A stretch of DNA of 20,000 nucleotides, taken from the NCBI GenBank assembly GCA_010093745.1, contig MU005972.1:112725-132724 (forward strand), in the 5' to 3' direction. Source of the stretch: Piedraia hortae CBS 480.64 (lineage: Eukaryota). Below are positions 2,510-20,000 of this stretch, piece after piece; positions within the stretch are counted from its first letter, which is position 1, and each line of letters begins with the position of its first letter. Both the position numbers and the translations under genes were made by a program. The notes below the pieces were generated by a model that saw nothing but the letters and a program-made list of their open reading frames with translations, was not told the DNA's origin and made no database searches.

Positions 2510-4489
2510 CTAATTCGAAGACTGGGTTCTTCCGAGTTGATAATCACTGGTATCGCACCAGAAGCCACTGCCAATCGAAACGTTCCCGCGATTCCCGAGT
2601 GTCTGTTGCAGTCGAGTCTGCGCATCCACGGCAGCATTTTCATCTTCCGTAGCATTAAAGACGTAGAGGACCGTTACCCCAGCAAAGTCGACCAACGTGC
2701 GCGCCGCGCCAGTCGGAGGTGTTGCCTCCACCGCTGCTTTTTTAGGTGCATTGGTGGCATATACGATGCCGGATTTCGTGGCGGCCGCGCCTGGATCGTG
2801 ACTGTTCCATGACAGCGGCGCCGTCTGGAATGTCACCAACGCGTTCTGATCCACACATCCCACCTGCAAGTTTGCAAATTTCTCCGCCAACGTAACGGAG
2901 TCAAGTGCCAGATTGAACTGGCCAGCGGCCTTGACAAGTGCCGGTATCGCTTCACCTATAACCACGTTTCCAGACTGCGTGCATCCTTGTTCCAGGGTTG
3001 ATCCGCATGCAGCGCCAGTACACGCGGCCGGGACCCCACGCGAGGTCTGGGTTTCATTTCCCCGGTGAATGTGTGCAGTCTGTGACTGCGTCAGGACGAT
3101 TGGTACTGCTATGGCCGCCGATACGAGCATGGCCAATCCAACCAGCAAAGCCATCAGCAGCCAGAGGGGCAGGCCGCAATAATGCTTTCTGGATGGCCGG
3201 TCTCTATCATTACACACACTCTGCGACCTCACTGGCGGTGGGTTCCACTGCGTGTCCTCGACGATTCTGGAACCGATGTATGCATGCTCCGGGGGTGCTG
3301 GTCGAGGTGGCGGAATCTTGGGATCCACGTTCACCGGTTCAAAACGCGTCTCTTGCTTCGGACTCGGGCTTCGCACTTTTTCCATTCGGTCGTCAACATC
3401 AACCATATCTAATCGGCTGGCAGTTCTACCTCGATCTAAATTAACAGCCAGCTTGGTTGCCCGCTGAATCAGATCCGGCAGGCTGGTCAACGAGCCGCGA
3501 GCTTCAGCCTTCTTGATGGTGTCAATGCTGATCTCTGGTGGCAGCCGTTGGGAACGGCGTTGGCTGAAGCCATTGCCTACGGCCACAATGGGGGCTGGCA
3601 CAGAAGCAGGAGTCTGTTCTGTAGGCGAATAAGTGAAGATGGCTGCCGCATTTGTACGCAAGCCATCTCGGGAATTCGTGAGTGAATCCTTGGGAGAGCT
3701 CTCTAATTCATCTTCTGAGTCCGAGCTGGCATCAATTAAACCAGTGCCGGTTTCGAGGATGCTTCCACTTGGCTGGGATTGGTGAAACTGCTCTGACCTC
3801 GGGCTATACGGGTCGCCGGAGCTTGACTTCCGCACCGTCGTCAAAGTTGGACGGCTCTTGCGGCCCAAACTGGCTGTACGAACCATGACCGCATCTGAAG
3901 CAGGCTGTGGGCCCTGCCGAAGGTGTAGCGGCTGCGGTAGAGGCGGAGCATCGGCAAGGCTGTCGCTGTAGGCACTGGTTGCCTCAGAGAGAGGCCGCGA
4001 ACTCGGGTGGGCGAGGCTGGCCCAAGCCGGCGGCGGACCTTCGCGGGGAGACGAGGCAAAGCCAATAGGAATGGCGGTGCTGCTGGCAAAAGATCTGGTG
4101 CTCTCATGGCCGGTGAGATTGCTGCGGCTGGTGAGGCCACTGGCACGCGAGGTGCTCTCGGACTCTTCGGCGATGGAGTGCACCGGGGCAAGATGCTGGT
4201 GCTGGTAGTAAGATGGAGGTCCGCGACGAGACGATGGCGGTGGGCCGAGCGGAGGGCGGATTGGAGGCCGTGGCGGCTCCAGAATGCCAATATCGGCCTC
4301 ATCCGGTCGCTGGGGACGCGGCGGAGGTCTCTTCGGCCTGCCGTCTCTGCCGTCTCCAACAGCCCCATCTGGAGGGGGCGGCGGGGCCGGAAGGGGCCAA
4401 TGAGAGGACCTGTCCTCACGCTCTCCGCTGGGAAATAAACCGGGCCCTACATGCTGTCCAGCAGCGGAGAAATGAGTGTGATGGGCCAT
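2510..4489 (-). CDS. Hypothetical single-pass membrane protein, 659 aa: long Pro/Ser/Arg-rich N-terminal region, one TM helix, Cys-containing C-terminal domain
   Basis: Long uninterrupted ATG-initiated ORF. Ordered-looking block EARGSLTSLPDLIQRATKLAVNLDRGRTASRL, basic RKH followed by hydrophobic CGLPLWLLMALLVGLAMLVSAAIAVPIVL, then a C-terminal part with several Cys and N-glycosylation sequons (NET, NAT, NVS). Confidence 0.85.
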   Translation of the reverse strand: MAHHTHFSAAGQHVGPGLFPSGEREDRSSHWPLPAPPPPPDGAVGDGRDGRPKRPPPRPQRPDEADIGILEPPRPPIRPPLGPPPSSRRGPPSYYQHQHLAPVHSIAEESESTSRASGLTSRSNLTGHESTRSFASSTAIPIGFASSPREGPPPAWASLAHPSSRPLSEATSAYSDSLADAPPLPQPLHLRQGPQPASDAVMVRTASLGRKSRPTLTTVRKSSSGDPYSPRSEQFHQSQPSGSILETGTGLIDASSDSEDELESSPKDSLTNSRDGLRTNAAAIFTYSPTEQTPASVPAPIVAVGNGFSQRRSQRLPPEISIDTIKKAEARGSLTSLPDLIQRATKLAVNLDRGRTASRLDMVDVDDRMEKVRSPSPKQETRFEPVNVDPKIPPPRPAPPEHAYIGSRIVEDTQWNPPPVRSQSVCNDRDRPSRKHYCGLPLWLLMALLVGLAMLVSAAIAVPIVLTQSQTAHIHRGNETQTSRGVPAACTGAACGSTLEQGCTQSGNVVIGEAIPALVKAAGQFNLALDSVTLAEKFANLQVGCVDQNALVTFQTAPLSWNSHDPGAAATKSGIVYATNAPKKAAVEATPPTGAARTLVDFAGVTVLYVFNATEDENAAVDAQTRLQQTLGNRGNVSIGSGFWCDTSDYQLGRTQSSN

Positions 4490-4838
4490 AACGAACGTCA
4501 GGAGTGTGTGGAAGTGCGAAGGGTGAGGAGCGTTTGGGCCATGACCCCTGCTCGTCTCAAGCCACTTACAAACCGATATCTATCATGGGCCACTTATCAT
4601 CATTCACGAAGGGCGATGATGAAACGACATGGCTCTCACACACGCCTTAAGTGCATCACGTGGTCTGGTAATAGTACTACCAATATGTGAAGATCATCGC
4701 TGCACGCAACAGAGGCGTCGCTGTGAGAAATTGGCTGCAGCAAGTGGGGGTATCTAAATATAACCTGTCAGGCTGAAACATGTGGCCCCCCCCCCGCCGC
4801 AAAAGTTGCTGATCTCCACATTCGTTCGTGAACACCTA

Positions 4839-6079
4839 TTATTGCCTCATTTCCTCGCTGCTCCGCGTACTAAAAGGGTCTACGGGTCTGACTTCGCTTT
4901 GGACCTCAACCACTGTGTGGCTACGCACCCCTCTTGAGTTGAACAGGCGATCCAAACTGCCATCATGACTCCGAAGTGCAATCTCTTCATCTTTCCGACC
5001 ACGGCGTCTTCCACGTCTCGTTGGCGTCGACTGCTGTGGATGCGCCGTTATCGTTGTAGTTGTCCCGAATTCCTGATGGGACCGCAGCGTGACGAACGTG
5101 TCTAAACCTTTGTTGTTGTCCCGGTCGGACGCACGCCCAAAGAGCAAAGTCCCTCGAGTCAGTCCATAGACGACAACATCAAGCCAACCAATGCACGTAA
5201 TCAAAGCGCCCACCGCACACATCAGCGAAACGCTAGGCGTCCAGTGCTCCATGCCTTTGAGACGCACAACGATCAATGGCAGCGTACATACCACGTAGAC
5301 AATGGGGTAGATGATGATTAGTCGTGCCGCTGATCGAGCTCGTAATGCCGTCGAAGGGGTGGCGTAGTAAGAGGTGTGAAGGCGACGCTGCAAGATGGCG
5401 AGAATCGCTCCGTAGATGATAACAGTCCCAAATTCAGCCACAATGACCCAAAAGTAGTGGAGCCAGAGCCGTTCTGCCGCATACTTGCCGCTCACCCAGC
5501 ACCAGGGACCGGCGCGAGCATAACTGCAACGCATTAGCAAGTACCGAGAAAGCGTTGGTGCACTTACTAGTCGGAAGCGTGGGCAGCAAAGCCCGCTACA
5601 GCAAGGACGTGTACAAGGCACCATAAAGCCGCCAGGCAGGACAGGAAGGTAACTTGAGGGAGGTGGTAGTCGAATGTAATGTCGGCAAACAGGTGAATGG
5701 CAATGGCTAGAGTGAAGACGCCGCTTGATAGATTGCCAACGCTGATGAACCAGCCTTGGGCGATACAGGCCTTGTCACTAACCAGGACCCCGTCCAGGGA
5801 CACCCAGCGCGAGTTGAGCATGAAGCCCACCGACTGCAGCATGTCGGCAAAAATCAGGTTGTATATTAGGATCAGGAATTGGCTGACTCGCAGTGTTGAA
5901 CTTTGACGACGGCGACGAAGCTCAGTAAAGACCTTGTAGCTCAGCCATAAGAAGAGTAGAGTGGATGATATGAAAGAGAGAAGGCCGAAGAAAGCCACGG
6001 CGGTGAGGCCACGACGATGCTCTGGAGAAAGAGGCGAAAGGGAGGCGCTGGCCTGCTGCATCGCCTGTTCGGTGGCCAT
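4839..6079 (-). CDS. Fungal 7-TM G-protein-coupled-receptor-like protein (Git3/Gpr1-related), 398 aa; exons 6079-5568 and 5523-4839
   Basis: ORFs 5567..6079 and 4839..5624 join in frame across a 44-nt intron (GAC TA|GTAAGT...GCTAAT...TTGCAG|T TAT GCT), giving ..HASDYYARAGPWCWV.. Seven hydrophobic segments, with motifs NLIFADMLQS, CIAQGWFIS, AGPWCW, LWLHYFW, YPIVYVVCTLPL and GWLDVVVY. Confidence 0.88.
5524..5567 (-). other. Spliceosomal intron (44 nt, phase 2) of the GPCR-like gene
   Basis: Minus strand GTAAGT donor, GCTAAT branch site, TGCAG acceptor. Splicing restores the frame; unspliced RNA reads TAG across the donor. Confidence 0.9.
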
Positions 6080-6581
6080 TGGTCTTGATACGCGTTGCTC
6101 CTCTGATAAAGGAAGTCGGCGTACTCTATTGGTATTGTTGCGAGGTTTCCCACGCTTCCAAAGTATGTAAATGCGCTCATAAATGTGTCGCTATGCACGC
6201 TGTGAGAGCTTTTTCACTGTGTCGCTGTGCGGGTCCAGTGTCTGTTTACCGTTTAGGTTCGAGAGGTAAGGCCTTCTTCACTGCTTGGGTTCCCAGTTTT
6301 CCGGGCTTGTGCGTTCACAGTCACACTTACAGCAGCCATCCTGATAGAGGGACATTAAATGCGGAAGAAACAGGTCAGAGAGATTTTTTCGGAAAAGGCT
6401 GTGGCCTGACCTGCACCGCCGGTTTTAACAACATCAATGCTGAGGCAGCCGGCAGATTTGTGGTGAACATTGCGTGCAGACGAGACGAGGCTTACCGGGG
6501 TCACTGGTAATACGAGCCCTACCGTAATTATCCCTGACGTGTCAGTTTGAACGATGGGGAGAGCAGCGCTCTATAATTACC

Positions 6582-7417: not shown

Positions 7418-10259
7418 ATGAGCTTCAACAAAAAGGACGAGGATGATGCAGCCGTCGTCAAGGTTGACCGCACGTCGGTGTTCCAGGAGGGTAAGTGCTG
7501 TCGCTGTCCGCTTTGCGCCGCGCTCACCTTGTCCATCAGCCCGTGTCTTCAACACATCGGCCATATCACCCCGGAGATGTCGCATTTTACTGACCAAGAT
7601 TGCGCTGCTACTCTTTACGGGCGAGCGATTTCCAACCAACGAGGCTACGGATCTCTTCTTCGGCATCTCCAAGCTGTTCCAGAACAAGGACGCCGCCCTG
7701 CGCCAGATGGTGTATCTGGTTATCAAGGAGCTCAGCAAGGACGCGCAGGATGTGATCATGGTTACGAGCAGCATCATGAAGGATACGGCCGTCAATAGCG
7801 ACGTCCTCTACCGTGCCAACGCCATTCGGGCTCTGATCCGCATTATCGATGCCTCAACGGTGCCCTCAATTGAGCGCAGTATCAAGGCTGCTATTGTGGA
7901 CAAGTCGCCGTCGGTGGCCTCTGCTACCTTGGTGTCGTCGTACCATCTGCTGCCCGTCGCCAGGGACATTGTAAGGCGATGGCAGAGCGAGACACAGGAG
8001 GCGGCCTCGTCGCAGAAGAGCGGCGGCGCTTTCTCTGGCTGGGGCTCAGCAGCTCAGCTACCCTTGGCCACCAACAGCATGACGCAGTACCATGCCATTG
8101 GCCTGCTCTATCAGATGCGTAGCCACGACCGCATGGCTCTAGTGAAGATGGTGCAGCAGTACTCCGTTGCCGGTGTTGTCAGGTCGCCTCCGGCCCGCAT
8201 AATGCTTGTCCGCCTGGCCTCCAGGCTGGCCGAGGAAGAGCCTAATCTGCGGAAGCCGATGATGAAGCTGCTAGACGAATGGCTTCGCGACAAGAGCGAA
8301 ATGGTGAACATCGAGGCTGCCAAAGCCATCTGTGCCCTGCCCGACCTCACAAACGCCGATGTTTCGCAGGCAATCCACGTGCTCCAACTCTTTCTTACTT
8401 CGCCCCGCCCCATTATCAAATTCGCCGCTATTCGTATCCTGCATTCCTTTGCCAATTTCATCCCCGCAGCCGTCAGTCCATGCAATCAAGACATTGAGAC
8501 TCTTATCGGCAATTCTAATCGCAGCATTGCCACGTTTGCCATCACAACGCTGCTCAAGACGGGCAATGAGAGTTCGGTAGACCGGCTCATGAAGACCATC
8601 TCTACTTTCATGTCGGAGATTACAGACGAGTTCAAGGTGACGATAGTCGAGGCGATTCGTACCTTGTGTCTCAAGTTTCCCAACAAGCAAGCCGGTATGC
8701 TTTCGTTCCTGTCCAACATTCTTCGTGATGAGGGTGGCTACGACTTCAAAAGGGCAACAGTGGAGTCGATGTTTGACCTTATCAAGTTTGTGCCAGAGAG
8801 CAAAGAAGACGCGCTGGCGCATCTGTGCGAGTTTATCGAAGACTGCGAGTTCACCAAGCTTGCTGTGCGCATCCTGCATTTCTTGGGGGTCGAGGGACCT
8901 CAAACTGCCAAGCCAACCAAATACATCCGTTACATATACAACCGCGTAGTGCTCGAGAATTCGATTGTGCGCGCAGCCGCCGTCACGGCGTTGGCCAAAT
9001 TTGGCGTTGGACAGTCGGATCAGGATGTAAAGAAGAGCGTCGGTGTGCTACTGAAGCGCTGTCTAGACGACACGGATGACGAGGTCAGGGACCGTGCAGC
9101 GCTTAACTTGCGACTGATGGGTGAGAACGATGACTTGGCCGTCCACTTTGTTCGAAACGGTATTTACCTTTTGCCCATTGGTCATTGTGCAGATGCTGAC
9201 GACTTAGATTCAATGTTTTCTCTACCCGTCCTGGAGGACCAGTTGGCACATTACGTCAACGGTGGCTCTGCTGAGGCATTTGCAAAACCTTTTGACCTGC
9301 AAAATGTGCCCGTGGTAACGCGAGAGCAGTCTCTGGCCGAGGACCGTACGCGGAAGCTTCACACTGCAACGCCAATGCTCCAGGCGCCGTCTACAGGGCC
9401 GAAGAAGAGCAGCACAGTGACAGAAGCGGCAGAAGAAGCCTCAGCCGCCAATCAAAGGTATGCAAAGCAGCTACAGGCTGTGCCCGAGTTTGGCCCATAT
9501 GGAAGCCTACTCAAGAGTTCTCCGGTAACGGAGCTTACCGAGAGCGAGACCGAGTACGTGGTGTCGGCTGTGAAGCACATCTTCCAAGAGCACATCGTGC
9601 TACAGTTTGACATCAAGAACACGCTGGCGGATTACGTTTTGGCAGACGTCAGCGTGCTTTGCGTTGCCGAAGCCGGTGACGAGAGCAGCAGCGAGCTAGA
9701 AGAGGAGTTCATAATCCCGGCGCCCTTGCTGCGTCCTGATGAGCCCGGGACCGTTTTTGTTTCCCTTGCACGAGATTCGGAGGCCTACACCGTGGCCAGC
9801 TTCACCAACACGCTCAAATTCACACTCAAAGAAATCGATCCAACCACATCGGAGCCAGAGGAGAGCGGATACGAAGACGAGTACCAAGTTGAAGACTTGA
9901 CACTTGCAGGGAGCGATTACGTCGTTCCGGCATTCGCAGGCAGCTTTGATGAAGTGTGGACCAGCCTAGAAGGCAGCGACGCGGCAGAAGAAACACTACA
10001 ACTGGACAATGCCAGCGATATCAACGAAGCGGTGGAGATGCTGGTCAAGGCCTTGGGCATGCAGGCGTTGGAGGGCAGCGATGTTGCAATATCTACATCT
10101 ACGCACGTGCTGAAGTTGTATGGAAAGAGTGTGGCGGGGGGTAAGGTTGCATCGATGGTGCGCATGGCGTATTCTGCCAAGTCTGGCGTTACGGTAAAGG
10201 TGAGTGTACGCAGTGAAGAAGCGGATTTGGCGGGGCTGGTGTTGGCGTCTATAGCCTAG
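7418..10259 (+). CDS. SEC21: Coatomer subunit gamma (gamma-COP), 914 aa; exons 7418-7490, 7540-9159, 9208-10259
   Basis: MSFNKKDED..VDRTSVFQE|ARVFN..ISPRRCRILLTKI after splicing; LFFGISKLFQNKD, LAHLCEFIEDCEF, YIRYIYNRVVLEN, DDEVRDRA, LTESETEYVV..VKHIF, appendage GYEDEYQVEDL. Confidence 0.97.
7491..7539 (+). other. SEC21 intron 1 (49 nt, phase 1)
   Basis: GTAAGT donor, GCTCAC branch site, CATCAG acceptor. Joins ORF 7418.. to ORF 7443.. in frame (G|CC = Ala). Confidence 0.93.
9160..9207 (+). other. SEC21 intron 2 (48 nt, phase 1, in frame, no stop)
   Basis: GTATTT donor, GCTGAC branch site at 9195-9200, TTAG acceptor. Splicing gives ..FVRN-DSMFSL..; the ORF track reads through it as GIYLLPIGHCADADDL. 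Confidence 0.85.
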
Positions 10260-10979
10260 GATTGTCCTTAGAGTATGAATCATCCTCACGTTGAGTTACG
10301 CTCCAATTTACTCGGCCTAGACACCGAAAAACATCTTTTACCATCGGTTGACAAGATGCGTACTGTGGTGGAGATACTGAACACGCCAGGGTGGTACTGT
10401 CCATGGGGATGACCGTGACTGGAAAGCAAGGGGATCAACGGCAGTCACATGAACTTGGAGAGGTTAAGTTCAATTGATCTATCGTGTGCTATGGTATGCA
10501 TATAAACTCTCTATATGTGCGTGGCCCACATCAATGCCAAGCATAGTAAGACGTACACTCCAGCAGGAAGGAAGCAATGTTGTTTACACTCGAAGTCAAT
10601 GTACGGCGTTAGTTAGGAACAGATCCTGATGAATGACTTGGTTCTTTTTGTGTCAAGGCTTGAACTTTCCATGTGAGGGGGAAAAAAAAAAACAACAACA
10701 CATGAAGCGGGAGAACTCTATCTTGGGCGGGTGTTGATATTCGAGATAGGCGACAGACAACGTTCTGCATGTCATTCAGGCCCTTTCCACTTGACGATTG
10801 CAAGTGGGCACAGACTGTTACGCTCGGCTCGTTCCGGCTGCATCTTACATTGCAGTGACGTATTGAGACATCACGTGAGTTAATTGACCGGAAACCAGGA
10901 AGTGGCCGGGCATGGGCGCTTTGTGTGGCCAACAAACCCTCCTTGATCAAACACACAACACAATGTGCAATCGCTAAGT

Positions 10980-13900
10980 ATGTCCAGACAAGACATCTCA
11001 TTCAAGACGGTTCCGGGCCGCAACCGGACGCAAAAATGGTCGCAGGCCAAGACGTACAACTACGACGGCGACGACTGGGGCGGGTATGACGACGGCTACT
11101 ATGAAGATGCCCCACAATTGGAGCGTCAGCGCAGTTTCGACGTGGGGCAAGAGGCGGAGCGACGGCAGTTTAGCGGGCCGCTGGCCGCTGACTCGATGGC
11201 GGCCGGCCCCGACGACGCCACGACTCGCGCTCCCGTTGTCATCCGACCGGCCGACATTTACAAGCGCATGGCGGCCGCCAACAGCGCGCGGGAAGACGCG
11301 GGGCAGCAGTCGAGCCAGCCCCAGCATGCGACGCTCTCGAGCCTCGCGTCGTCGACCTCCTCGCCGCCAGGCCCCCAACAGAACCTCCAGCAGACCCAAC
11401 AAACCCAACAAACCCAACGCCTCCAAGCGGAACAAGCCCAACAACTCCCACGATCTCAGCAGCACCGCCAGCTGCCCCCCGTCAGCCGCATCTCCGGGTT
11501 CGGCACCGACTTTATCCAGAACAGCTCCCAGCCGGACAACCGCGATCGGGTGCAAAGCACGATAGCGCGCGTGATGAACGCACCTGTAGTGCGGACAGAG
11601 GCAGCGCTACAACAGAGGCCAAGCGGTACCAGCCAAGATCGCAATGCAGTCCTGCATTCAGCCTCAGAGGGCGGAGAGAACCCGATCTCGCGGGACGATT
11701 CGGCTACAAACCTGACGTCTAGCATTGGTCCAATGACTAGCCGCGATACCTCCACGACCCATTCACGGCTGGTTGAACCCGTAGTGTCTCCAATCGCGGA
11801 AGAAGCCGCGCAGTCCCCTGGCCAAGGCGTGCAAGGATTCCGGCAGAACACGGAGCTGCCAGCCCACGAAGAGTCGCCTGCAAGGCCGCTTGAACATGAA
11901 CAAATCGACAGTAGACGGCTGAACGGGCCAATGGCGACCGAGAGGGTCGAACAGCCCGGCTATGGCGGCCGCGGCCGGCCGGACTACGACGGCGTCCAGG
12001 CGGATCGCGGCATTCGCCAAGCCAATGTAACCTCCAGATCGCCTCCAGAAGAGACCGACCGACAGCAGCCGTTGACTCGTGTCCAGTCCGTGACGCCCAC
12101 ACCTCCTGGTGCAGGGCTGGGCGCCCCTCGGTCAGGCACGGCCAATGAGCGCAACAGTCCGGTGCGAACAAACCGTGTGCGGGCAATCGCCGAAAACTAC
12201 AACTTGATTGAGGCGGCGTCGAACCGCAACAGCAATACCAGTCTCGCCTCGTGGCGGTCTGGCAAGAACAGCGTGCGCGGGTCAGAGGAGAACCTGTCGT
12301 TGAAGAAGAAGAACACGGGGCTGAGCATTGAAAGCCGCAAGTCGACGCTAGAAGATGCCGAGCGACGGCTGACGCTCGATACGCAGCCCAGCCAGGCCAG
12401 TTTCCGGCCCCATTTGCCTGGCGAGTGGATCAGCACCGCTCCCACTCCGGTAAGCGAGTCGCCCACGAAAGCGTCAGCTTCCACGCCCTCGGCATCTCCT
12501 TCACACCTCGCTCAGGCCGCATCACGCTTTCCGCGACCTTCTTCACGCTCTCCGAAGAGGAACGAGACGTTGCCGCAGGCTGCGTCGCCCGAGCGCACCC
12601 CAAAGGCTGCCGATTCCGGAGTGCAGGCCAAGGGCGCTCTTGATCAGGTCAAGGACGCCGGCACAGCTCTTGGGGCGTCTCTCATGGCCACTGCCGGCCT
12701 GTCCAGCGTTGCTCGTGACTTTGCCTCTAACCAGCCAACACAGCAGCCGGAGCAGCCGGACATGAGAGCCAAACGAACGACGGGAGATGTTGCTCAGATT
12801 CGTCCGGCTGCTGTTCGTTGGGAGAGTGAGGCTCCGAGCAGCGTTGCCAACTCCATTCCCCCAAGTCCCACGCCCCCACAACGGCCAGCAGAGACCAGAG
12901 CGCAGTCAGGATACTTCGCCGACGTCGTGCAGCCCCTCCACACCAGCCGTCCAGATTCTGACCTGCAGGAGGTTCAGCCAAAGTCTCGCAGCGTGTCAAA
13001 CCTCAGCGATGATGTCCTTGATCAAGACTTTGAGAGCGATCGACTTAGAAAAGAGATTGTTGCCAGTCTGGACCCTTTCAAGGCGCAGGACGACATCTAT
13101 CGCACGCAAGACGCTCTTGACGCTCCAGACAACGCTGCTCGTGTTGCGCGCGGAGAAGAACCGCTTCCGGGAGCCGAGATAGCCGGGCAGTCGAACCGGC
13201 GGTTCAGTTGGGAAGGTCAGGAGACGCCAGGTGTGCTGCCAGTGGAACATTCGGTTCAGCAGCCAGTCGGGCAGCGCATGGAAGATTCTCCAGAAACGCC
13301 CAGGCAGCAGTCTATTGAGGAGCCAAGGGAGAGTCAAGTGGAGCGAACAGCCGAAAGACCAACAGTCATCACACCGGAAAGGCCGTATGAGAGGCCAGAA
13401 ACTCGTGGACTGCATGTCACAAACACAGACGATCTCCGCGATGCAAATCAGCAGATAATTAGTCCGACTGGAAGCCTTGAACGGCATGGGCGGTCTGCTA
13501 ACGGTCAGCCCGTGGCCGTTGCCGACTCCAGCCCCATCTCGGCATTGTCTGACGCTCAGAGGAATGTTCCCGACGAGTCTCCAAGCAGCCCTCTCCACAG
13601 CCCTCGGGTTGGGTCCGAAATTTCATCTCCAGTGGCTGCTAAAACGCCTATTTCGCCTGCTGCTCAGACCAAAATCCCGCCATTCCGTGAGATCCTCGCG
13701 ATCCGTCACACGCCTGAGCGCATCCAGACCTACAACGATACCCGCCAGACGTTCGCCGACATGGACACTGGACTCCCCAACTGGCTCTCGGCCACAATGG
13801 CACAAAGACCAGAATATGCCGCCGACCTTGAAGCGCCCGTTCCATCTAATTTGGTGGCATCTCGCCAACAGAAACCATCAATTCTGAAAATCGCTAAAGG

Positions 13901-14072
13901 CTTCTCCAACACCGACTCTGGCATTGGCGAGAGGAAGGCATCGCTGAGCGATGCCAGCGCGATGCGCGGAAAGGAAATTATGAAGAATGCGAAGGGACTA
14001 TTTGCCATGGGGAGAAACAAATTTGGGACGCTCAGTGGGAAGTCTGGGGGTAATGGGAGTGAGAAGGTATGA
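10980..14072 (+). CDS. Large Ser/Pro/Gln-rich hypothetical protein, 1,030 aa if unspliced; probably exon 1 (10980-14066) of a roughly 2,711-aa gene
   Basis: 3.1-kb ORF, first ATG at 10980. Short ordered-looking motifs in a disordered background: SFKTVPGRNRTQKWSQAKTYNYDGDDWGGYD, FRPHLPGEWIS, ESDRLRKEIVASL, RRFSWE, FREILAI..ERIQTYNDTRQTFADMDTGLPNWL, AKGLFAMGRNKF. Ends GAG AAG GTA TGA. Confidence 0.88.
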   Translation: MSRQDISFKTVPGRNRTQKWSQAKTYNYDGDDWGGYDDGYYEDAPQLERQRSFDVGQEAERRQFSGPLAADSMAAGPDDATTRAPVVIRPADIYKRMAAANSAREDAGQQSSQPQHATLSSLASSTSSPPGPQQNLQQTQQTQQTQRLQAEQAQQLPRSQQHRQLPPVSRISGFGTDFIQNSSQPDNRDRVQSTIARVMNAPVVRTEAALQQRPSGTSQDRNAVLHSASEGGENPISRDDSATNLTSSIGPMTSRDTSTTHSRLVEPVVSPIAEEAAQSPGQGVQGFRQNTELPAHEESPARPLEHEQIDSRRLNGPMATERVEQPGYGGRGRPDYDGVQADRGIRQANVTSRSPPEETDRQQPLTRVQSVTPTPPGAGLGAPRSGTANERNSPVRTNRVRAIAENYNLIEAASNRNSNTSLASWRSGKNSVRGSEENLSLKKKNTGLSIESRKSTLEDAERRLTLDTQPSQASFRPHLPGEWISTAPTPVSESPTKASASTPSASPSHLAQAASRFPRPSSRSPKRNETLPQAASPERTPKAADSGVQAKGALDQVKDAGTALGASLMATAGLSSVARDFASNQPTQQPEQPDMRAKRTTGDVAQIRPAAVRWESEAPSSVANSIPPSPTPPQRPAETRAQSGYFADVVQPLHTSRPDSDLQEVQPKSRSVSNLSDDVLDQDFESDRLRKEIVASLDPFKAQDDIYRTQDALDAPDNAARVARGEEPLPGAEIAGQSNRRFSWEGQETPGVLPVEHSVQQPVGQRMEDSPETPRQQSIEEPRESQVERTAERPTVITPERPYERPETRGLHVTNTDDLRDANQQIISPTGSLERHGRSANGQPVAVADSSPISALSDAQRNVPDESPSSPLHSPRVGSEISSPVAAKTPISPAAQTKIPPFREILAIRHTPERIQTYNDTRQTFADMDTGLPNWLSATMAQRPEYAADLEAPVPSNLVASRQQKPSILKIAKGFSNTDSGIGERKASLSDASAMRGKEIMKNAKGLFAMGRNKFGTLSGKSGGNGSEKV
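11388..11417 (+). repeat. Coding 9-nt tandem repeat (ACCCAACAA unit) encoding QQTQQTQQTQ
   Basis: cagcagacccaacaaacccaacaaacccaa read directly. Confidence 0.8.
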
Positions 14073-14160
14073 TTATCTTCCCTATTCTTCTTCTTCTTCT
14101 TCGTTTTTTTTTTTTTTTTTTTTTTTCTCCATATCCGTGCCACTTGCTTATCAGTGTAGG

Positions 14161-14170
14161 NNNNNNNNNN
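14161..14170. other. Assembly gap (10 N)
   Basis: nnnnnnnnnn in the sequence. Confidence 1.
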
Positions 14171-14252
14171 GAATGCGAAGGGACTATTTGCCATGGGGAG
14201 AAACAAATTTGGGACGCTCAGTGGGAAGTCTGGGGGTAATGGGAGTGAGAAG

Positions 14253-14345
14253 GTATGATTATCTTACCTATTCTTGTGGCCTTGATTAGGAAATCCATTT
14301 TTTCTATCTTTCCTCCATATCCGTGCCACTTGCTTATCAGTGTAG
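14253..14345 (+). other. Predicted 93-nt phase-0 intron (the other copy is 14067-14159) linking the two large ORFs
   Basis: AAG|GTATGA donor, pyrimidine-rich body, degenerate branch-like GCTTAT, TGTAG acceptor. The downstream long frame opens exactly after this TAG. Confidence 0.72.
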
Positions 14346-17300
14346 GGGTTCGCTTCTTTTCAGAGGAGGAGCTCCAGTTCTCGTTCCCGGTCGAGAACTG
14401 TTTCTACTCCTATTCGACCTACTGAGGAAGATTCGGCGACGGGGAGAAGAGGCCGTTCGTCTCCTCCTCCAACCCTACCCATATCGACCCTTTCCGGTCG
14501 GGGCCCGCCTGCTCGGGGAAGGTATGCATCGCAGCCTTTGCCTACCACTCGACTGCCGAGTTACACCAGGGACTCTGAACCTATGACGGTAGCAAATCCT
14601 TCGCAGGGCGATGGTCCCGTCATAGGGTATTTCACCACCTCGTCCACGACGGAGCACTTCTCCATGACTGTGTCGACGACGACATCTGTTAGGTTCAACG
14701 TGCGGGGCAACCAGGGGGGTGGGAATGCGAGGAGGGTGACATCTGGGGCTGGAATTGGGACCGAGACTGCTGCCGCGGGCGCTGTATCGATTGGGAATGC
14801 TGTCGCCGCTGGGGCGACAATGTCAGGGAGAGACGGGTCTTCCTCTAAAGCAGGTGCAATTTCTACTCCTGAGGATGGGAATGCAGCAGCTGCAGCCGTA
14901 GCAACGACTAGCCCTGCAAACGGACCTGTCATGTCCCTTGCTGCAGGCACCCGTTCCCGTATTGTGTCCATTTCTAGTCAAGATGAGGCTCCAACACGGA
15001 CCAACATACGGTTTACCGATGTGTCATCGAGTCAGAACGTGGGTTCTGCCGAAGCAAGAGCCCATGGAATGGACGACTTTGTGTTTGACATCGGTCCAAG
15101 TAAAGAAGAACATGACGATACAACGCTGCAGGAAGTACCGCTCCCGCATACGAGGACGAGGTCTCAGGCGGGTTTCTTCCATCAGTTTGGCCAGAGGGTT
15201 GCTTCATCACAGGATAGGGATGGTTTGTTACCTTTTGAACACTCGACGAACCTTCCTCCTCCCTCTCCGGATGGAATGAGTCATGAAGCTTTTGTTCCCA
15301 AGCAGCAACACCTTCCCCTGCCTGATAATCGTAAACCGGAGCCGGAAGGATCGCGAGCTCTTGTCGAACGCGGTGATGGAGATGGTTATGGCTCAGCTGG
15401 GGTTGAAGATGTTCATGGGCCATCTGGGGACCTGAAAGGGCAACCTCTCCCCGCAGATGGAGATGGCTACGGACCCTCTGATAGTCGACATGGGCTCGTC
15501 ACATCTGGAAACGGTGACGAATATCATTCTTCCGAGCTTGGGTATGGGTATCGTCCTTCTGTAGACGAGCAAGTCTATACTGCATCTGAAGACGAACAAG
15601 TACATGCAGACCGACATCCGGAGACCTTCCGAATTCCAACGCAGAGCCCTCCACCCACCTTGACGCAAATGTTCTTCTCTGCGCTGCTTGGTCGACCTAT
15701 TCATGCTTCGAATGAACAGGACTCTCCCCATCAGCAGGAGTATTCTACGTCTCTGGAGGACGATCGCTTCGAAAGGGATGAGAGGCAAACCAGGCGTCTT
15801 TCGCAGGAGAAAGCCCTTCCAGGCCAGGTCCAAGCCCGGTCTGGGTATGCTACTCATGAGCGGGATCTGGAAGAAGAATATGCTGCGGGTTATAGACAGG
15901 GTATGCTCGACCAAAAGCGAGGCAATGCCGGAGCTTATGGCCCTAGCCGGCGAACACCAAGTCCCGTCGGGTACCATGGTCATATGCCCCTGCAGCGTGA
16001 GAACAGCAGAGGTCATGCGCAACAAGGTCATGACCAACGAGCTTCGAGCTTCGTTGTCTATGCAAGTCCCCAGATCGGGCAGGAAAACGCTGAATGCCAT
16101 CGTCAGGGTCCTGTCGATCGCGGTCAAACGTTTTCACCCCCGCAGCAAGAGATGGTGCGGTCGATGCAGAGACATAACAGCCAAATGGCTGCTCAATATC
16201 GGGGTCCAACCAATAATGTCGAGATGCCTCCTTCCCAGCTGAGGCAAGAGAACCATGGTGAATACCCAGGCCGCCCTCTCCGTCCTGGTCAATCTGGTCA
16301 ATCGCTGCCTCAAGCAGACTTACCCATGCAGCGAGGACCCGCGCAGCCTATGCATGAACCCCAAATACGGCATGATGTGCCTTCCCAGGATGATCAGATG
16401 CTCCAACGCTCTGAGAGTTATGGTCAGCGAAATCAAAACCCCGTCCATGATGGCACAATGGGACGTATGCCTGCTCTAACCGGGCACGAAATTGGTCCGT
16501 CGGAAGCTCCCCAAAACCGGATGCTGGACCAGTCATTCGACGGTTACGGCCAGCAACCTCAAACTTGGACCGACCACAGTGGACCCGATCCAATGCAGCC
16601 ACGAGCCGGCTCATCAGTCCCAGAAGGGGTCACTAGGCCGACGCACAGTCATGCTTCGCCAGAGATTACCCAAACTCGAATGCATAACGCCAACATGTCC
16701 TATCCCTCGCAGAGTTCTAATCAACAAGCACCTCAAACTGGCGTTCTCGCCGGCTCTCGAGACGGGCAGACCTCTCGGGGGATCATGGCCGAACAGCCTT
16801 TTCCAAGTGGATATACAACTCCTGGTGGCCGGGCGCGAAGCCCCGCTGACGGCCCCTACCTTGGGCAAGAGCTGCCAGCTGAATGCGTACGCAGCACGTC
16901 CGAGTATGGTCATATTCCTGTTGATCAAACGTACTATAACAGACCTGATCAAACCCCGCGCCAAGGCATGTCAAATGCACCTGAAGAGTATGCACGTGCA
17001 GAAATATACGACGGTGGCTATGGGCAAATGCAAGAGCATACTGGTCCCGGACAGGGCTCCCAAATGCCAATGCAGCAAGCTCCGGCACAGATGAACATGG
17101 CTCAACAATATGAATCGCCATCTTCCCAGACATCTGTCCAGCAATACCCGGAACAAAGAGTGACTGGTTTTGACACCGCTGGCCTACAGCAAACCTTTGA
17201 CGGTGCACAAATGTCTACGGATGCGCAGTCTACGTCCAGAGGGCAAGTCCCTACTCAGCTTCCATCTGTTATGTTCAATCAACCAATCTCTCGAAGCTCT

Positions 17301-19394
17301 GAATATCAAGCTCAGCCAAGGGGTGATGATGCTGGAGCATTCCTTAATCAATGGATCGGTCCGCAACATTCTGACTCGCACCCGCCGGTTGCACCCGGTC
17401 CTCACAGGCAGGGAAGGCAAAGCTACGTAGAGGAAAGTTTGGCCAGCAGTGACGCCCCTCGCCAGGCGGGGGCTCAGAGTTTTCAAGGCGTACGTGAAGG
17501 TGCTCCGGTAGATTCTCGGGGTGAAACTGTCAACGAATTCGTCGATCGACCACGTGTACCAATGATTTCTCAGCAGCAGCCACCTCTTTCTGAACAGCAG
17601 GAAATGGACCCTATGAATTTTGGATATAGAGGCAATGCGGGCTCACGCCAACGCTGGAGTTCTTATGAGTATATCCAGAACCAGTCTACTGCTTATGGAT
17701 CAACTAGGTCCCCGCAGGGCTACGAGCACAACCAAGCTGCTCCCTATGAAGCTGCCTCAGTCTCGTACGCTCCGCAGAGACAAGGTGTGAACGTTCGTCA
17801 TTCATACGTTCAGGCTCCGCCCAGCAGACAGCAGTATACCCCGGCTGCCATTCGTCAGCTCGGCATGGAACGGCAAGGGGATTATCCTTCGTCTCGTGTT
17901 CACAACAGGAGTGTTTCGCAACCTGGCGTGGCGTCTCCTTTCCAAGGGAATAATGCCCCGAGACTCAGCATGGATAACCCCCCGCCTCAAAGCTTTGCCG
18001 CTCATCAGAATCAGATGTATGGCAATCATCCCCGGGAGTTGCACTCCGCCAAGAACGCCCGCGGGTCTCAGACACCCTCCTTACGACACTCTTTTGCAGG
18101 ACGTGTGCGGCAACCGACCGGGATACCGCTCGGTGACGATACCCCAGAGGGAGCGCAGTCGCCTGACGAATATCCGTGGGCTCCGGTTCTGACCGGCCAA
18201 GACCTTGGTCCTGCTCATGCCCAGCAACCCTATGGGTATTTTGAAGTCCGTCAGCCCGTACAGGTGCATCGTGACAGTGGATATGTTGAGTCTGGACAAC
18301 CACAGAGCGCAGCGGATTCTGTCGGACGTAGCTCTCAAGAGTCGCGGACATTCTCGCAGGCTCCCATGGATGACCCCATCCAAGTTTCGAAATCCCGTCG
18401 TCAAGGCTCGGCAGATACGGGTAACTCGGGCAGCAGACAGGTAGAACGACCGAATCATCAGCGCAAGGTCAGCGCGTTATCAACGCTACCCAGCCAGCAA
18501 AGAGCGCAGCGGCTGGGAACGCCGCGTCGAATGCCCAGTCCTGAGCCAGTGGCTCGGGCGGAGGAAGTTTCACCAGCGATTTCACCAGCTATAAGTGAAG
18601 AACCGCGGGCGCCATCCATTTCCCATATTATTCGGGCAAGGGAGGCGACGCAAGGCATACCAATGCAGCAAGGCAGTGTGCCTGAGCCGGTGCAGCCAGC
18701 CGCGCAGCAGCAAACAAATGTCGCACCCGCCCCCTTTTCCATGCCGTTCGACGACGACATCGCCCACCTTTCCCATGGTCCCTACAATCAAACCCAGCCA
18801 CAATCCTACCCCTCGGTGCCTTCACAGCCCTACCAGTTCCATCGCTCCCCGCAGCCACAGACGCCAACCATCCAACTTCCTCTTCAAGAACAACCCATTC
18901 CGGATCCCCCAGCACCTCAAAACAAACACCACCGCTCGCGATCCCGCATGTCCCTTAACTTCATGCGCCGCCCTTCCTCAAGCGGAGCAACCCAACCCGA
19001 AGGCGTCGAAACCCCCAAGAAACGGAACAGCATTTTCCGCACCTTCAGCAGCAAGCGGTACCCAAAAGGCACACCCGAGAACGAGGAACCTAAACCTCAA
19101 AGAAGCTTCTCCACGCGTGCCGATCTCTCACCAAACCCATCCAGCCCAACAAGTACCGGGAATAAATGGGCAAACATCTTCCGCCGCTCTAAAACCCAAT
19201 ACTTTTCCGAAGGGAAGAAACTGATGAAATCTTCACCCGGGGAACTAGGTACAGCCCCCGTCTACGATGCTCCAACTACGGAGAATTTGCCCGCTTCGCG
19301 GGAGGGAGGACAGAATAAGGAACGTGATGCAAAGAGATTCTATAAATCCGCTCCGCCCACGGGAATACCTGAGGGGTCGCCTGATCTGAGGTGA
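14346..19394 (+). CDS. Very long Gln/Ser/Pro/Gly-rich, probably disordered coding region (1,682 aa); probable exon 2 of the gene starting at 10980 (if independent, first ATG at 14583)
   Basis: The frame of ORF 14538..19394 stays open upstream to 14346 (GFASFQRRSSSSRSRSRTVSTP..YASQPLPTTRLPSY), bounded by TAG at 14343-14345. About 5 kb without a stop; no recognisable domain. Confidence 0.8.
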   Translation, partial: GFASFQRRSSSSRSRSRTVSTPIRPTEEDSATGRRGRSSPPPTLPISTLSGRGPPARGRYASQPLPTTRLPSYTRDSEPMTVANPSQGDGPVIGYFTTSSTTEHFSMTVSTTTSVRFNVRGNQGGGNARRVTSGAGIGTETAAAGAVSIGNAVAAGATMSGRDGSSSKAGAISTPEDGNAAAAAVATTSPANGPVMSLAAGTRSRIVSISSQDEAPTRTNIRFTDVSSSQNVGSAEARAHGMDDFVFDIGPSKEEHDDTTLQEVPLPHTRTRSQAGFFHQFGQRVASSQDRDGLLPFEHSTNLPPPSPDGMSHEAFVPKQQHLPLPDNRKPEPEGSRALVERGDGDGYGSAGVEDVHGPSGDLKGQPLPADGDGYGPSDSRHGLVTSGNGDEYHSSELGYGYRPSVDEQVYTASEDEQVHADRHPETFRIPTQSPPPTLTQMFFSALLGRPIHASNEQDSPHQQEYSTSLEDDRFERDERQTRRLSQEKALPGQVQARSGYATHERDLEEEYAAGYRQGMLDQKRGNAGAYGPSRRTPSPVGYHGHMPLQRENSRGHAQQGHDQRASSFVVYASPQIGQENAECHRQGPVDRGQTFSPPQQEMVRSMQRHNSQMAAQYRGPTNNVEMPPSQLRQENHGEYPGRPLRPGQSGQSLPQADLPMQRGPAQPMHEPQIRHDVPSQDDQMLQRSESYGQRNQNPVHDGTMGRMPALTGHEIGPSEAPQNRMLDQSFDGYGQQPQTWTDHSGPDPMQPRAGSSVPEGVTRPTHSHASPEITQTRMHNANMSYPSQSSNQQAPQTGVLAGSRDGQTSRGIMAEQPFPSGYTTPGGRARSPADGPYLGQELPAECVRSTSEYGHIPVDQTYYNRPDQTPRQGMSNAPEEYARAEIYDGGYGQMQEHTGPGQGSQMPMQQAPAQMNMAQQYESPSSQTSVQQYPEQRVTGFDTAGLQQTFDGAQMSTDAQSTSRGQVPTQLPSVMFNQPISRSSEYQAQPRGDDAGAFLNQWIGPQHSDSHPPVAPGPHRQGRQSYVEESLASSDAPRQAGAQSFQGVREGAPVDSRGETVNEFVDRPRVPMISQQQPPLSEQQEMDPMNFGYRGNAGSRQRWSSYEYIQNQSTAYGSTRSPQGYEHNQAAPYEAASVSYAPQRQGVNVRHSYVQAPPSRQQYTPAAIRQLGMERQGDYPSSRVHNRSVSQPGVASPFQGNNAPRLSMDNPPPQSFAAHQNQMYGNHPRELHSAKNARGSQTPSLRHSFAGRVRQPTGIPLGDDTPEGAQSPDEYPWAPVLTGQDLGPAHAQQPYGYFEVRQPVQVHRDSGYVESGQPQSAADSVGRSSQESRTFSQAPMDDPIQVSKSRRQGSADTGNSGSRQVERPNHQRKVSALSTLPSQQRAQRLGTPRRMPSPEPVARAEEVSPAISPAISEEPRAPSISHIIRAREATQGIPMQQGSVPEPVQPAAQQQTNVAPAPFSMPFDDDIAHLSHGPYNQTQPQSYPSVPSQPYQFHRSPQPQTPTIQLPLQEQPIPDPPAPQNKHHRSRSRMSLNFMRRPSSSGATQPEGVETPKKRNSIFRTFSSKRYPKGTPENEEPKPQRSFSTRADLSPNPSSPTSTGNKWANIFRRSKTQYFSEGKKLMKSSPGELGTAPVYDAPTTENLPASREGGQNKERDAKRFYKSAPPTGIPEGSPDLR

Positions 19395-19511
19395 TTGTTT
19401 AAAACTAGTGATAATAATAATTGTTGGATTGAGGTAGACAAAAGCGATAATAATTTTCCTTTGCATTACATCTCAACGAGCGACTATTCGTGATTCATCA
19501 ACTACATACAC

Positions 19512-20000
19512 TCACAAATGGATAGTTGTCGGTCCCGTAAGGGGAATCTTTTGCTTGATCACCTGGCCCTGGGGTTTGCCACGATAGCCGGTATAGCTGT
19601 GCTGACCACCATATCCTCCTGAAGTGCCGCTACCGCCTAGGACGGTAACCCCCGCGATGACCGAATCGGTTTTGTAGGCAAACGTTCCCGATACCTTCAG
19701 CGTACGGTCGCTGTATTCAAACTTGATATCGCTCGTTGCAGCTTGCTCGATGCTGACGCCGTCGTCGAGGTAGAGGTTTCCACTTGCGGTGCCGTTCGCG
19801 GACAGGGCGATAATCAGCTCAAAGTCTTTCGTTCGGAGTGCTTTGGTTGTGTTTGCCGATTCGATGCGCTGTGGGATGATGGATCCACCGCGGTAGTAGA
19901 GGGGGATGGTATCGTACGCGACATCCGTCAGAGTGACTGTGCTGCCCTGGCCGTGGACGGGCTCCTGCGTGTAGTAGTCGTAGAAGAGGTCATTTGGCAA
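19512..20000 (-). CDS. Glycoside hydrolase family 31 alpha-glucosidase, C-terminal part (gene continues beyond the window)
   Basis: PNDLFYDYYT, IPLYYRGGSIIPQR..SANTT..LR...FELIIA, GTASGNLYLDDGVS are typical of the C-terminal beta-domains of secreted fungal GH31 enzymes. The catalytic domain is outside the window. Confidence 0.9.
   Translation of the reverse strand: MPNDLFYDYYTQEPVHGQGSTVTLTDVAYDTIPLYYRGGSIIPQRIESANTTKALRTKDFELIIALSANGTASGNLYLDDGVSIEQAATSDIKFEYSDRTLKVSGTFAYKTDSVIAGVTVLGGSGTSGGYGGQHSYTGYRGKPQGQVIKQKIPLTGPTTIHL

Follow-up and report, generated by a model that had tools for sequence, protein, structure and literature searches.

Two long reading frames of Piedraia hortae form one spliced gene

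The window analysed here, a 20,000-nucleotide (nt) stretch of Piedraia hortae CBS 480.64 (contig MU005972.1, positions 112,725 to 132,724), carries on its plus strand two long open reading frames (ORFs). ORF1 (10980-14072) encodes 1,030 amino acids (aa) and ends with the codons GAG AAG|GTA TGA, and ORF2 (14346-19394) comprises 1,682 codons with its first ATG at 14583, 79 codons past the acceptor of the intron that separates them. A sequence-only reading of this DNA had joined both frames into one gene through a donor with a built-in stop codon, such that splicing would yield a 2,711-aa protein and failure to splice a 1,030-aa protein ending in EKV; its coordinates (the end of ORF1, the TGTAG, the ORF2 start at 14346 and the ATG at 14583) were reproduced.

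The donor GTATGA, which reads Val-stop when unspliced and whose position is conserved in relatives, occurs twice on the plus strand, at 14067-14072 (copy 1) and 14253-14258 (copy 2): a stretch of 176 base pairs (13985-14160) recurs at 14171-14346 with 155 of 176 positions identical, and 10 N (14161-14170) stand between the copies. All differences lie within a single pyrimidine stretch, degraded to TTC/poly-T in copy 1. From this pattern the interval 13985-14170 (no strand assigned) is most likely an assembly artefact, a degraded duplicate of 14171-14346 plus the 10 N, as would be left by two overlapping contigs that were never merged. A genuine tandem duplication that includes a 93-nt mini-exon was rejected, since the mini-exon is absent from the RNA contig described below. 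Collapsing the duplicate, as the earlier reading had advised, leaves a single 93-nt intron that fits this contig. The clean copy of the intron (14253-14345, plus strand, phase 0) ends in TGTAG with the acceptor TAG, has in-frame stops at codons 2, 10 and 31, and shows a non-canonical branch sequence, GCTTAT, at 14332-14337.

RNA evidence for this species consisted of the assembled contigs of one public run (X1), a form of data that drops rare transcripts. A 7,075-nt contig spans 11341-14064 and 14344-18694 with zero mismatches and skips 279 nt, which correspond to the 93-nt intron plus 186 duplicated or N positions and take GT..AG ends when the cut is moved 2 nt to the right, joining 14066 to 14346. 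Because the run, which is not recorded as RNA, also skips both introns of the neighbouring gamma-COP gene and leaves 10284-10494 uncovered, it behaves as RNA. P0079, a public NCBI model that its source assigns to Piedraia hortae, has 2,711 aa and equals residues 1-1029 of ORF1 plus ORF2 exactly. The RNA contig and this identity confirm that both frames belong to one gene, that the intron is spliced with the junction GSEK|GFASF, as had been predicted, and that the product has 2,711 aa. Automated annotation had been expected to split the gene; this was wrong here, and since P0079 matches the joined frames, the single-gene structure is already annotated and not new. Other genomes carry short models only, for example P0009, P0011 and P0034.

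The coding part of exon 1 (10980-14066, plus strand, 1,029 codons), common to the long and the putative short isoform, is covered by RNA contigs 10495-11309 and 11341-14064, while exon 2 (14346-19394, plus strand, 1,682 codons) encodes the disordered, S/P/Q/G-rich tail of the long isoform. The 3' untranslated region (UTR; 19395-19463, plus strand) is RNA-covered and meets a convergent minus-strand transcript (contigs 19072-19463 on the plus and 19439-19800 on the minus strand), so that no space is left for a further exon. The contigs of the two genes overlap at their 3' ends (19439-19463). At the other end, RNA cover starts about 485 nt before the ATG (10495-10979) at lower depth (252 versus 1,000), and the RNA contig has one extra A at the 10681 homopolymer. 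The second gamma-COP intron (9160-9207) is spliced from a non-consensus donor, GTATTT.

A stop codon beside the donor is conserved in relatives

We collected 65 homologous metagenome loci, of which 39 reach the end of exon 1 (the other 26, with no match to the exon 1 end, were dropped). Clustering at 80% nucleotide identity reduced these 39 to 22 clusters. In 21 of the 22 clusters the aligned K-V coincides with an in-frame AG|GT, and a stop follows 1, 2 or 3 codons on (4, 8 and 9 cases), compared with a null expectation for such a near stop, taken from the same introns, of 10.7% per locus. The K-V at the junction is invariant in the alignment, and its Val is encoded by GTA in 20 of 21 clusters versus 18% of 876 exon Val codons, as the donor demands. 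The donors themselves are GTAGAT (10 clusters), GTAGAG (4), GTAGAC (2), GTATAA (2), GTATGA (2) and GTGTTC (1). Only 2 of 21 have G at +5, which is present in 93% of 2,022 Fusarium introns (PMC5677156), and 16 of 21 combine G at +4 with A at +5, a pair expected in 0.12% by the Fusarium donor matrix.

A stop at a single donor is ordinary: by the same matrix about 3% of phase-0 introns would have one at +4 to +6, and stop-bearing donors are reported to be common in Yarrowia (PMC2911113). Its conservation across relatives, judged from these alignments, exceeds chance. The stop occupies codon 2, 3 or 4, is TGA or TAA, and in 17 of 21 clusters lies beyond +6, outside the donor; since place and codon vary and the K-V-stop form occurs in two separate clades, the stop has shifted repeatedly yet stayed close. 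Wherever at least 3 kb of downstream DNA was available (29 of 29 loci), a plus-strand frame of 400 codons or more begins within 700 nt, and the following exon in relatives measures 640-2,090 codons. The prediction that orthologues would end K-V-stop on this donor ahead of an in-phase long exon thus held in a wider sense, with 0-2 residues between Val and stop. The loci cover Capnodiales-, Dothideales-, Myriangiales-, Pleosporales- and Lecanoromycete-like clades; the exceptions are L012, which has no GT donor, and L066, which has GTGTTC and no downstream DNA.

The introns of relatives are long and carry unusual signals

The first in-phase acceptor of the relatives lies 226-525 nt from the donor (18 clusters), which is long for fungal introns. 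CTRAC occurs at the branch position in none of the 18 and CTRAY in 4, versus 91% CTRAY in Fusarium. A looser branch pattern, which the Piedraia GCTTAT also fits, is found in 17 of 18 introns versus 7 of 137 later in-frame AGs. Three Capnodiales-type loci (L006, L013 and L023) have a perfect donor, GTAAGT, behind the putative branch GCTCAT and about 20 nt before the predicted acceptor, which may act as a decoy or mark another alternative exon boundary.

ATGTA occurs within the first 200 nt of 13 of 18 introns. By comparison it was found in 1 of 12 true 3' flanks, and the upstream exon, the downstream exon and the opposite strand each gave 1 of 18. This strand-specific ATGTA/CATGTA element, seen for example in L041, L048 and L052, could be a site for a 3'-end or splicing factor.

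Short and long members of the family

The homologue search yielded 76 homologues, and the C-terminal profile matched 725 clusters at 50% identity, of which the best 150 representatives were classified. Among these, 24 are long (1,546-3,191 aa), 124 (among them one that is probably a wrongly classed long model) end in [KE]V plus 0-3 residues, and the remaining 2 in QV. The residue after the Val is acidic in 91 of 96 (Asp 80, Glu 11). Every one of the 24 long models continues at or beside the same Lys, and 19 end in YPG.W; the 10 long models that were looked up belong to Dothideomycetes, Lecanoromycetes and Eurotiomycetes. The median length of complete short forms is 1,408 aa (n=59), and a short/long switch would explain why databases mix family models of about 1,400 aa with others of about 2,300-3,000 aa. 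Some UniRef entries of this Pezizomycotina family are automatically named 'SWI-SNF chromatin-remodeling complex protein'. Exon 1 of Piedraia is compact for this family and takes a long branch next to Hortaea, Teratosphaeria and Baudoinia. Other endings (E-A-S, E-V-E, K-V-F-N or K-K-G) occur in Mycosphaerellaceae-like and some Sordariomycete-like members (L012; P0034 and P0049; L066, P0076 and P0140), in which the donor or the long exon may have been lost.

Short-type transcripts were found in two relatives. L027 is 99.9% identical to the genomic loci L025/L026 and is without their 57-nt GT..AG intron near the 5' end. It continues past the donor to K-V-D-K-stop and terminates at +238, short of the branch site and the predicted acceptor (+286); behind this acceptor, L025 carries an undisrupted exon of 2,087 codons with YPGQEW at its end. 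L015, an Aureobasidium-like contig, is without the 5' intron of L017 and L020 (about 80% identical, hence from a different species). It too crosses the donor and terminates at +254, ahead of an acceptor at +323 that matches the NCBI model P0109. L027 and L015 are thus short-isoform contigs of the complementary DNA (cDNA) type.

Features of the encoded protein

The product of exon 1 is mostly low-complexity S/A/P/R/Q sequence with short conserved motifs, and has the family features in order: an N-terminal motif, an RP.DIYKR motif, a helical domain and a basic segment. The N-terminal motif SFKT..R..KW..AK.Y.YDGDDWGGYD (10998-11090, plus strand) has R14, W20, Y28, G30, D31, W33 and G34 invariant in 29 sequences. 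The small helical domain IPPFREILA...WL...PEYA (13671-13829, plus strand; about 50 residues) is the only part that AlphaFold2 folds confidently, with four helices and a predicted local distance difference test (pLDDT) score of 79-96 over model residues 1-50; a PDB sequence search and Foldseek gave nothing significant for it. Just 5' of the junction, sequence comparison places a conserved basic, Gly-rich segment, RGKEIMKNAKGLFAMGRNKFG (13962-14027, plus strand), which would form the C-terminal end region of the short form. An amphipathic C-terminal helix was considered there and is unsupported by AlphaFold2 (basic segment with pLDDT near or below 50 and no helix); in 5 proteins the segment ranks 24-195 by hydrophobic moment among about 1,000-1,500 windows, and in the present protein a window other than the terminal segment scored highest.

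In the tail, the motif RPxHxRKxSALxxLPSQQR (18429-18578, plus strand; ORF2 residues 1362-1411) is common with Capnodiales-type long forms. It was detected with a profile of 18 relatives' tails (domain score 10.4 bits, E 1e-5; no shuffled control out of 20 exceeded 5 bits) and lies about 1,390 residues past the junction here versus 167-458 in relatives. A KKRFS-type cluster in mid-tail (ORF2 1491-1643) resembled those of relatives by eye but scored -2.1 bits, below shuffles (best 6.2 of 200), and was rejected. YPGQEW is absent from ORF2, and no such exon or paralogue was found elsewhere in the genome (G000); the motif is also absent from the Hortaea and Aureobasidium long models and is therefore not universal. 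Comparison of ORF2 with the 76 short homologues gave no match, the DNA repeats of exon 2 (three 18-nt two-copy families) are at chance level, and neither ORF1 nor ORF2 nor any of 8 further proteins had a family in Pfam. The simplest reading is that the Piedraia tail has been rebuilt.

A proposed conserved choice between splicing and intronic 3'-end formation

We consider it likely that this single-copy gene has a conserved composite terminal exon, at which splicing competes with intronic 3'-end formation. In relatives, the exon 1 frame crosses a weak donor (mostly AAG|GTAGA[T/G/C]) and stops 1-3 codons on, and the weak splice signals would let intronic cleavage and polyadenylation compete with splicing. 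Without splicing, a short protein ending K-V-(D/E)-(K/N) at the basic segment would result; with splicing, a long protein with a disordered, motif-bearing tail of 1,000-2,000 aa, usually ending in YPGQEW. Such a switch is well supported for the family and unproven in Piedraia hortae, as is the 1,030-aa EKV form of this species.

Several points weigh against this interpretation. No contig of run X1 contains the intron, and since the bin depths over this intron and both gamma-COP introns match those of the spliced contigs alone (545.9, 801.3, 812.5 and 814.6), the same is true of all three; contigs lose rare forms and short tips, and a dead end shorter than 100 nt would probably be clipped during assembly, so the short form could be missed and this is no refutation. 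The loci are related, so that the 21 cases are not independent trials, and the donor baseline comes from Fusarium; 4 de novo control introns within the loci were unreliable and were discarded. The acceptors of relatives are predictions, and the looser branch pattern was picked after inspecting the data. Hexamers used for polyadenylation in Fusarium (10.1101/2021.11.08.467853) are not enriched in the introns (AATWVA 3/18, TAKMTA 4/18). Most of the short proteins in databases are simple ORF predictions that extend into the intron; they mark the position of the stop without proving that such a protein exists. Neither L027 nor L015 has a visible poly(A) tail, a DNA contig (L040) ends at +203 too, which makes contig ends weak markers, and both isoforms were never seen as RNA within one species.

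The same observations could be read as an ordinary constitutive intron whose early stop feeds mis-spliced RNA to nonsense-mediated decay, with K-V being the donor read through and the short cDNAs fragments of unspliced pre-mRNA. The Piedraia intron, a multiple of three in length and stop-containing, is as expected in that case (93.7% of such Yarrowia introns are reported to contain stops; PMC2911113), the spliced form alone was seen in this species, and the roughly 3% of phase-0 donors with a stop at +4 to +6 point the same way. Decay, however, needs a stop anywhere, not within three codons in 21 of 21 clusters and mostly outside the donor, and it leaves unexplained both the conserved +4G,+5A donor and the acidic residue after the Val; moreover, L027 and L015 have their 5' intron removed and end before the branch site. 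We regard this explanation as improbable for the family, and it may be true for Piedraia alone. Still less probable is regulated intron retention without intronic polyadenylation, in which the short protein would come from a full-length mRNA with a 3-6-kb 3' UTR. Retention is reported to make up 61.9% of alternative splicing in F. graminearum, where UPF1 may not clear intron-retaining transcripts (10.1101/2021.11.08.467853), donor and branch are both weak, and retention would be the sole route left in a 93-nt intron. Against this, L027 and L015 end 48 and about 70 nt before the acceptor instead of running into exon 2, and the relatives' introns stay long enough to serve as a 3' UTR.

That ORF2 is an independent gene with its own promoter has a precedent in Neurospora lah-1/lah-2 (PMC2690989), and would agree with the many genomes annotated with a short model only and with lineages that have no GT donor (L012) or end differently (L066, P0076 and P0140). 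As the sole structure it is refuted by the single contig that joins both frames; ORF2 starts at the acceptor, well before its first ATG, and long models of three classes join at the same residue, so that we give this explanation hardly any weight. An additional internal start in ORF2 may exist besides the joined mRNA and could escape notice in contigs.

Within the preferred reading of a conserved composite terminal exon, Piedraia stands apart: its intron has shrunk to 93 nt and is without ATGTA, and its donor GTATGA, with G at +5, is stronger than the family's usual GTAGAT. Since the intron is so short, its ATGTA-bearing middle is lost and the donor has G at +5, the switch of this species is probably biased towards the long form or fixed on it; it may be entirely fixed, and we lean against the view that Piedraia still makes the short form. 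On a more speculative and rather unlikely extension, the switch would be an ancient, developmentally regulated choice between splicing and polyadenylation, maintained by the GTAGA donor, the non-consensus branch and the intronic ATGTA. By adding a disordered tail of 1,000-2,000 aa, it would turn a Fyv8-type protein like that of yeast into a giant one that serves structures specific to hyphae, such as septa or tips, while reduced genomes like that of Piedraia are locked on the long form with a rebuilt tail.

Conserved RNA processing that diversifies the proteome is considered rare in fungi (PMC3597508). The switch proposed here would span at least three, probably four, classes of Pezizomycotina, with strong sequence signatures and a very large consequence for the protein. 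No published account of the family or the switch was found in the literature searched, with most subscription journals and Iso-Seq supplements outside its scope; the type of mechanism is known and fungal parallels exist, and the conserved switch in this family appears to be new.

Relation to known systems and possible function

The closest mechanistic likeness is with the composite terminal exons of the IgM heavy chain and CstF-77 intron 3 (PMC3708835), in which a weak conserved 5' splice site and a relatively large intron are described, read-through ends the protein early and splicing adds a distal C-terminus. The present family differs in being fungal, in adding a disordered exon of 1,000-2,000 aa and in having a weak branch site as well; its poly(A) site is deduced from contig ends, and no regulator is known. 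SKI7/HBS1 and PTC7 (PMC3597508) likewise are described as ancient two-protein genes that persist across fungal classes although some lineages have lost one form. The function of those genes is known, and they rely on alternative 3' sites or on translation of a retained intron, whereas in the present, uncharacterised family the stop lies at the donor. Cryptic peroxisomal targeting signal (PTS1) isoforms of fungal enzymes (PMC4207609) also switch a C-terminal extension at the stop codon, by splicing or readthrough; these are reported to add a few residues as an address, whereas here the protein is more than doubled and has no PTS1. The Neurospora Leashin locus (PMC2690989) is a giant Pezizomycotina locus too, whose 5' half can end via splicing and intragenic termination, but lah-2 has its own promoter and the halves here are joined in mRNA; the likeness noted is one of architecture.

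A lead to function comes from the Fyv8 family (Pfam PF27837), whose likeness was seen through P0127, the only one of 116 homologues with a precomputed PF27837 match, and through language-model neighbours, in which 21% and 25% of members carry PF27837 at sub-threshold scores of 0.80 and 0.76, and which are leads only. The Pfam copy used gave no PF27837 match for P0001, P0002 or P0079, nor for P0127, and so is probably without the model. Language-model matches to Aim21 (0.77-0.78) were treated as noise. Yeast FYV8 (YGR196C) is described as uncharacterised and as clustering with glycosylation, folding and cell-wall genes (PMC5427489), its product is reported to be pulled down by the Rad53 FHA1 domain (PMC2064674), and wall proteomes of C. 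glabrata include Fyv8 (PMC11936215). That the present protein is a cortical or secretory-pathway scaffold related to Fyv8, to which the tail would add docking and phosphorylation sites, is a doubtful possibility.

Neighbouring genes

The other genes of the window include those for gamma-COP, a phosducin-like protein and a SPOUT methyltransferase. This neighbourhood is partly kept in relatives, with gamma-COP and phosducin homologues in L023 and L024 and SPOUT in L020 and L023. On the minus strand, a 689-codon frame (2510-4579) has one hydrophobic segment, and a two-exon gene (4839-6190) encodes a multi-pass membrane protein; neither had a Pfam match in the parts tested, and the latter resembles a G protein-coupled receptor by eye.
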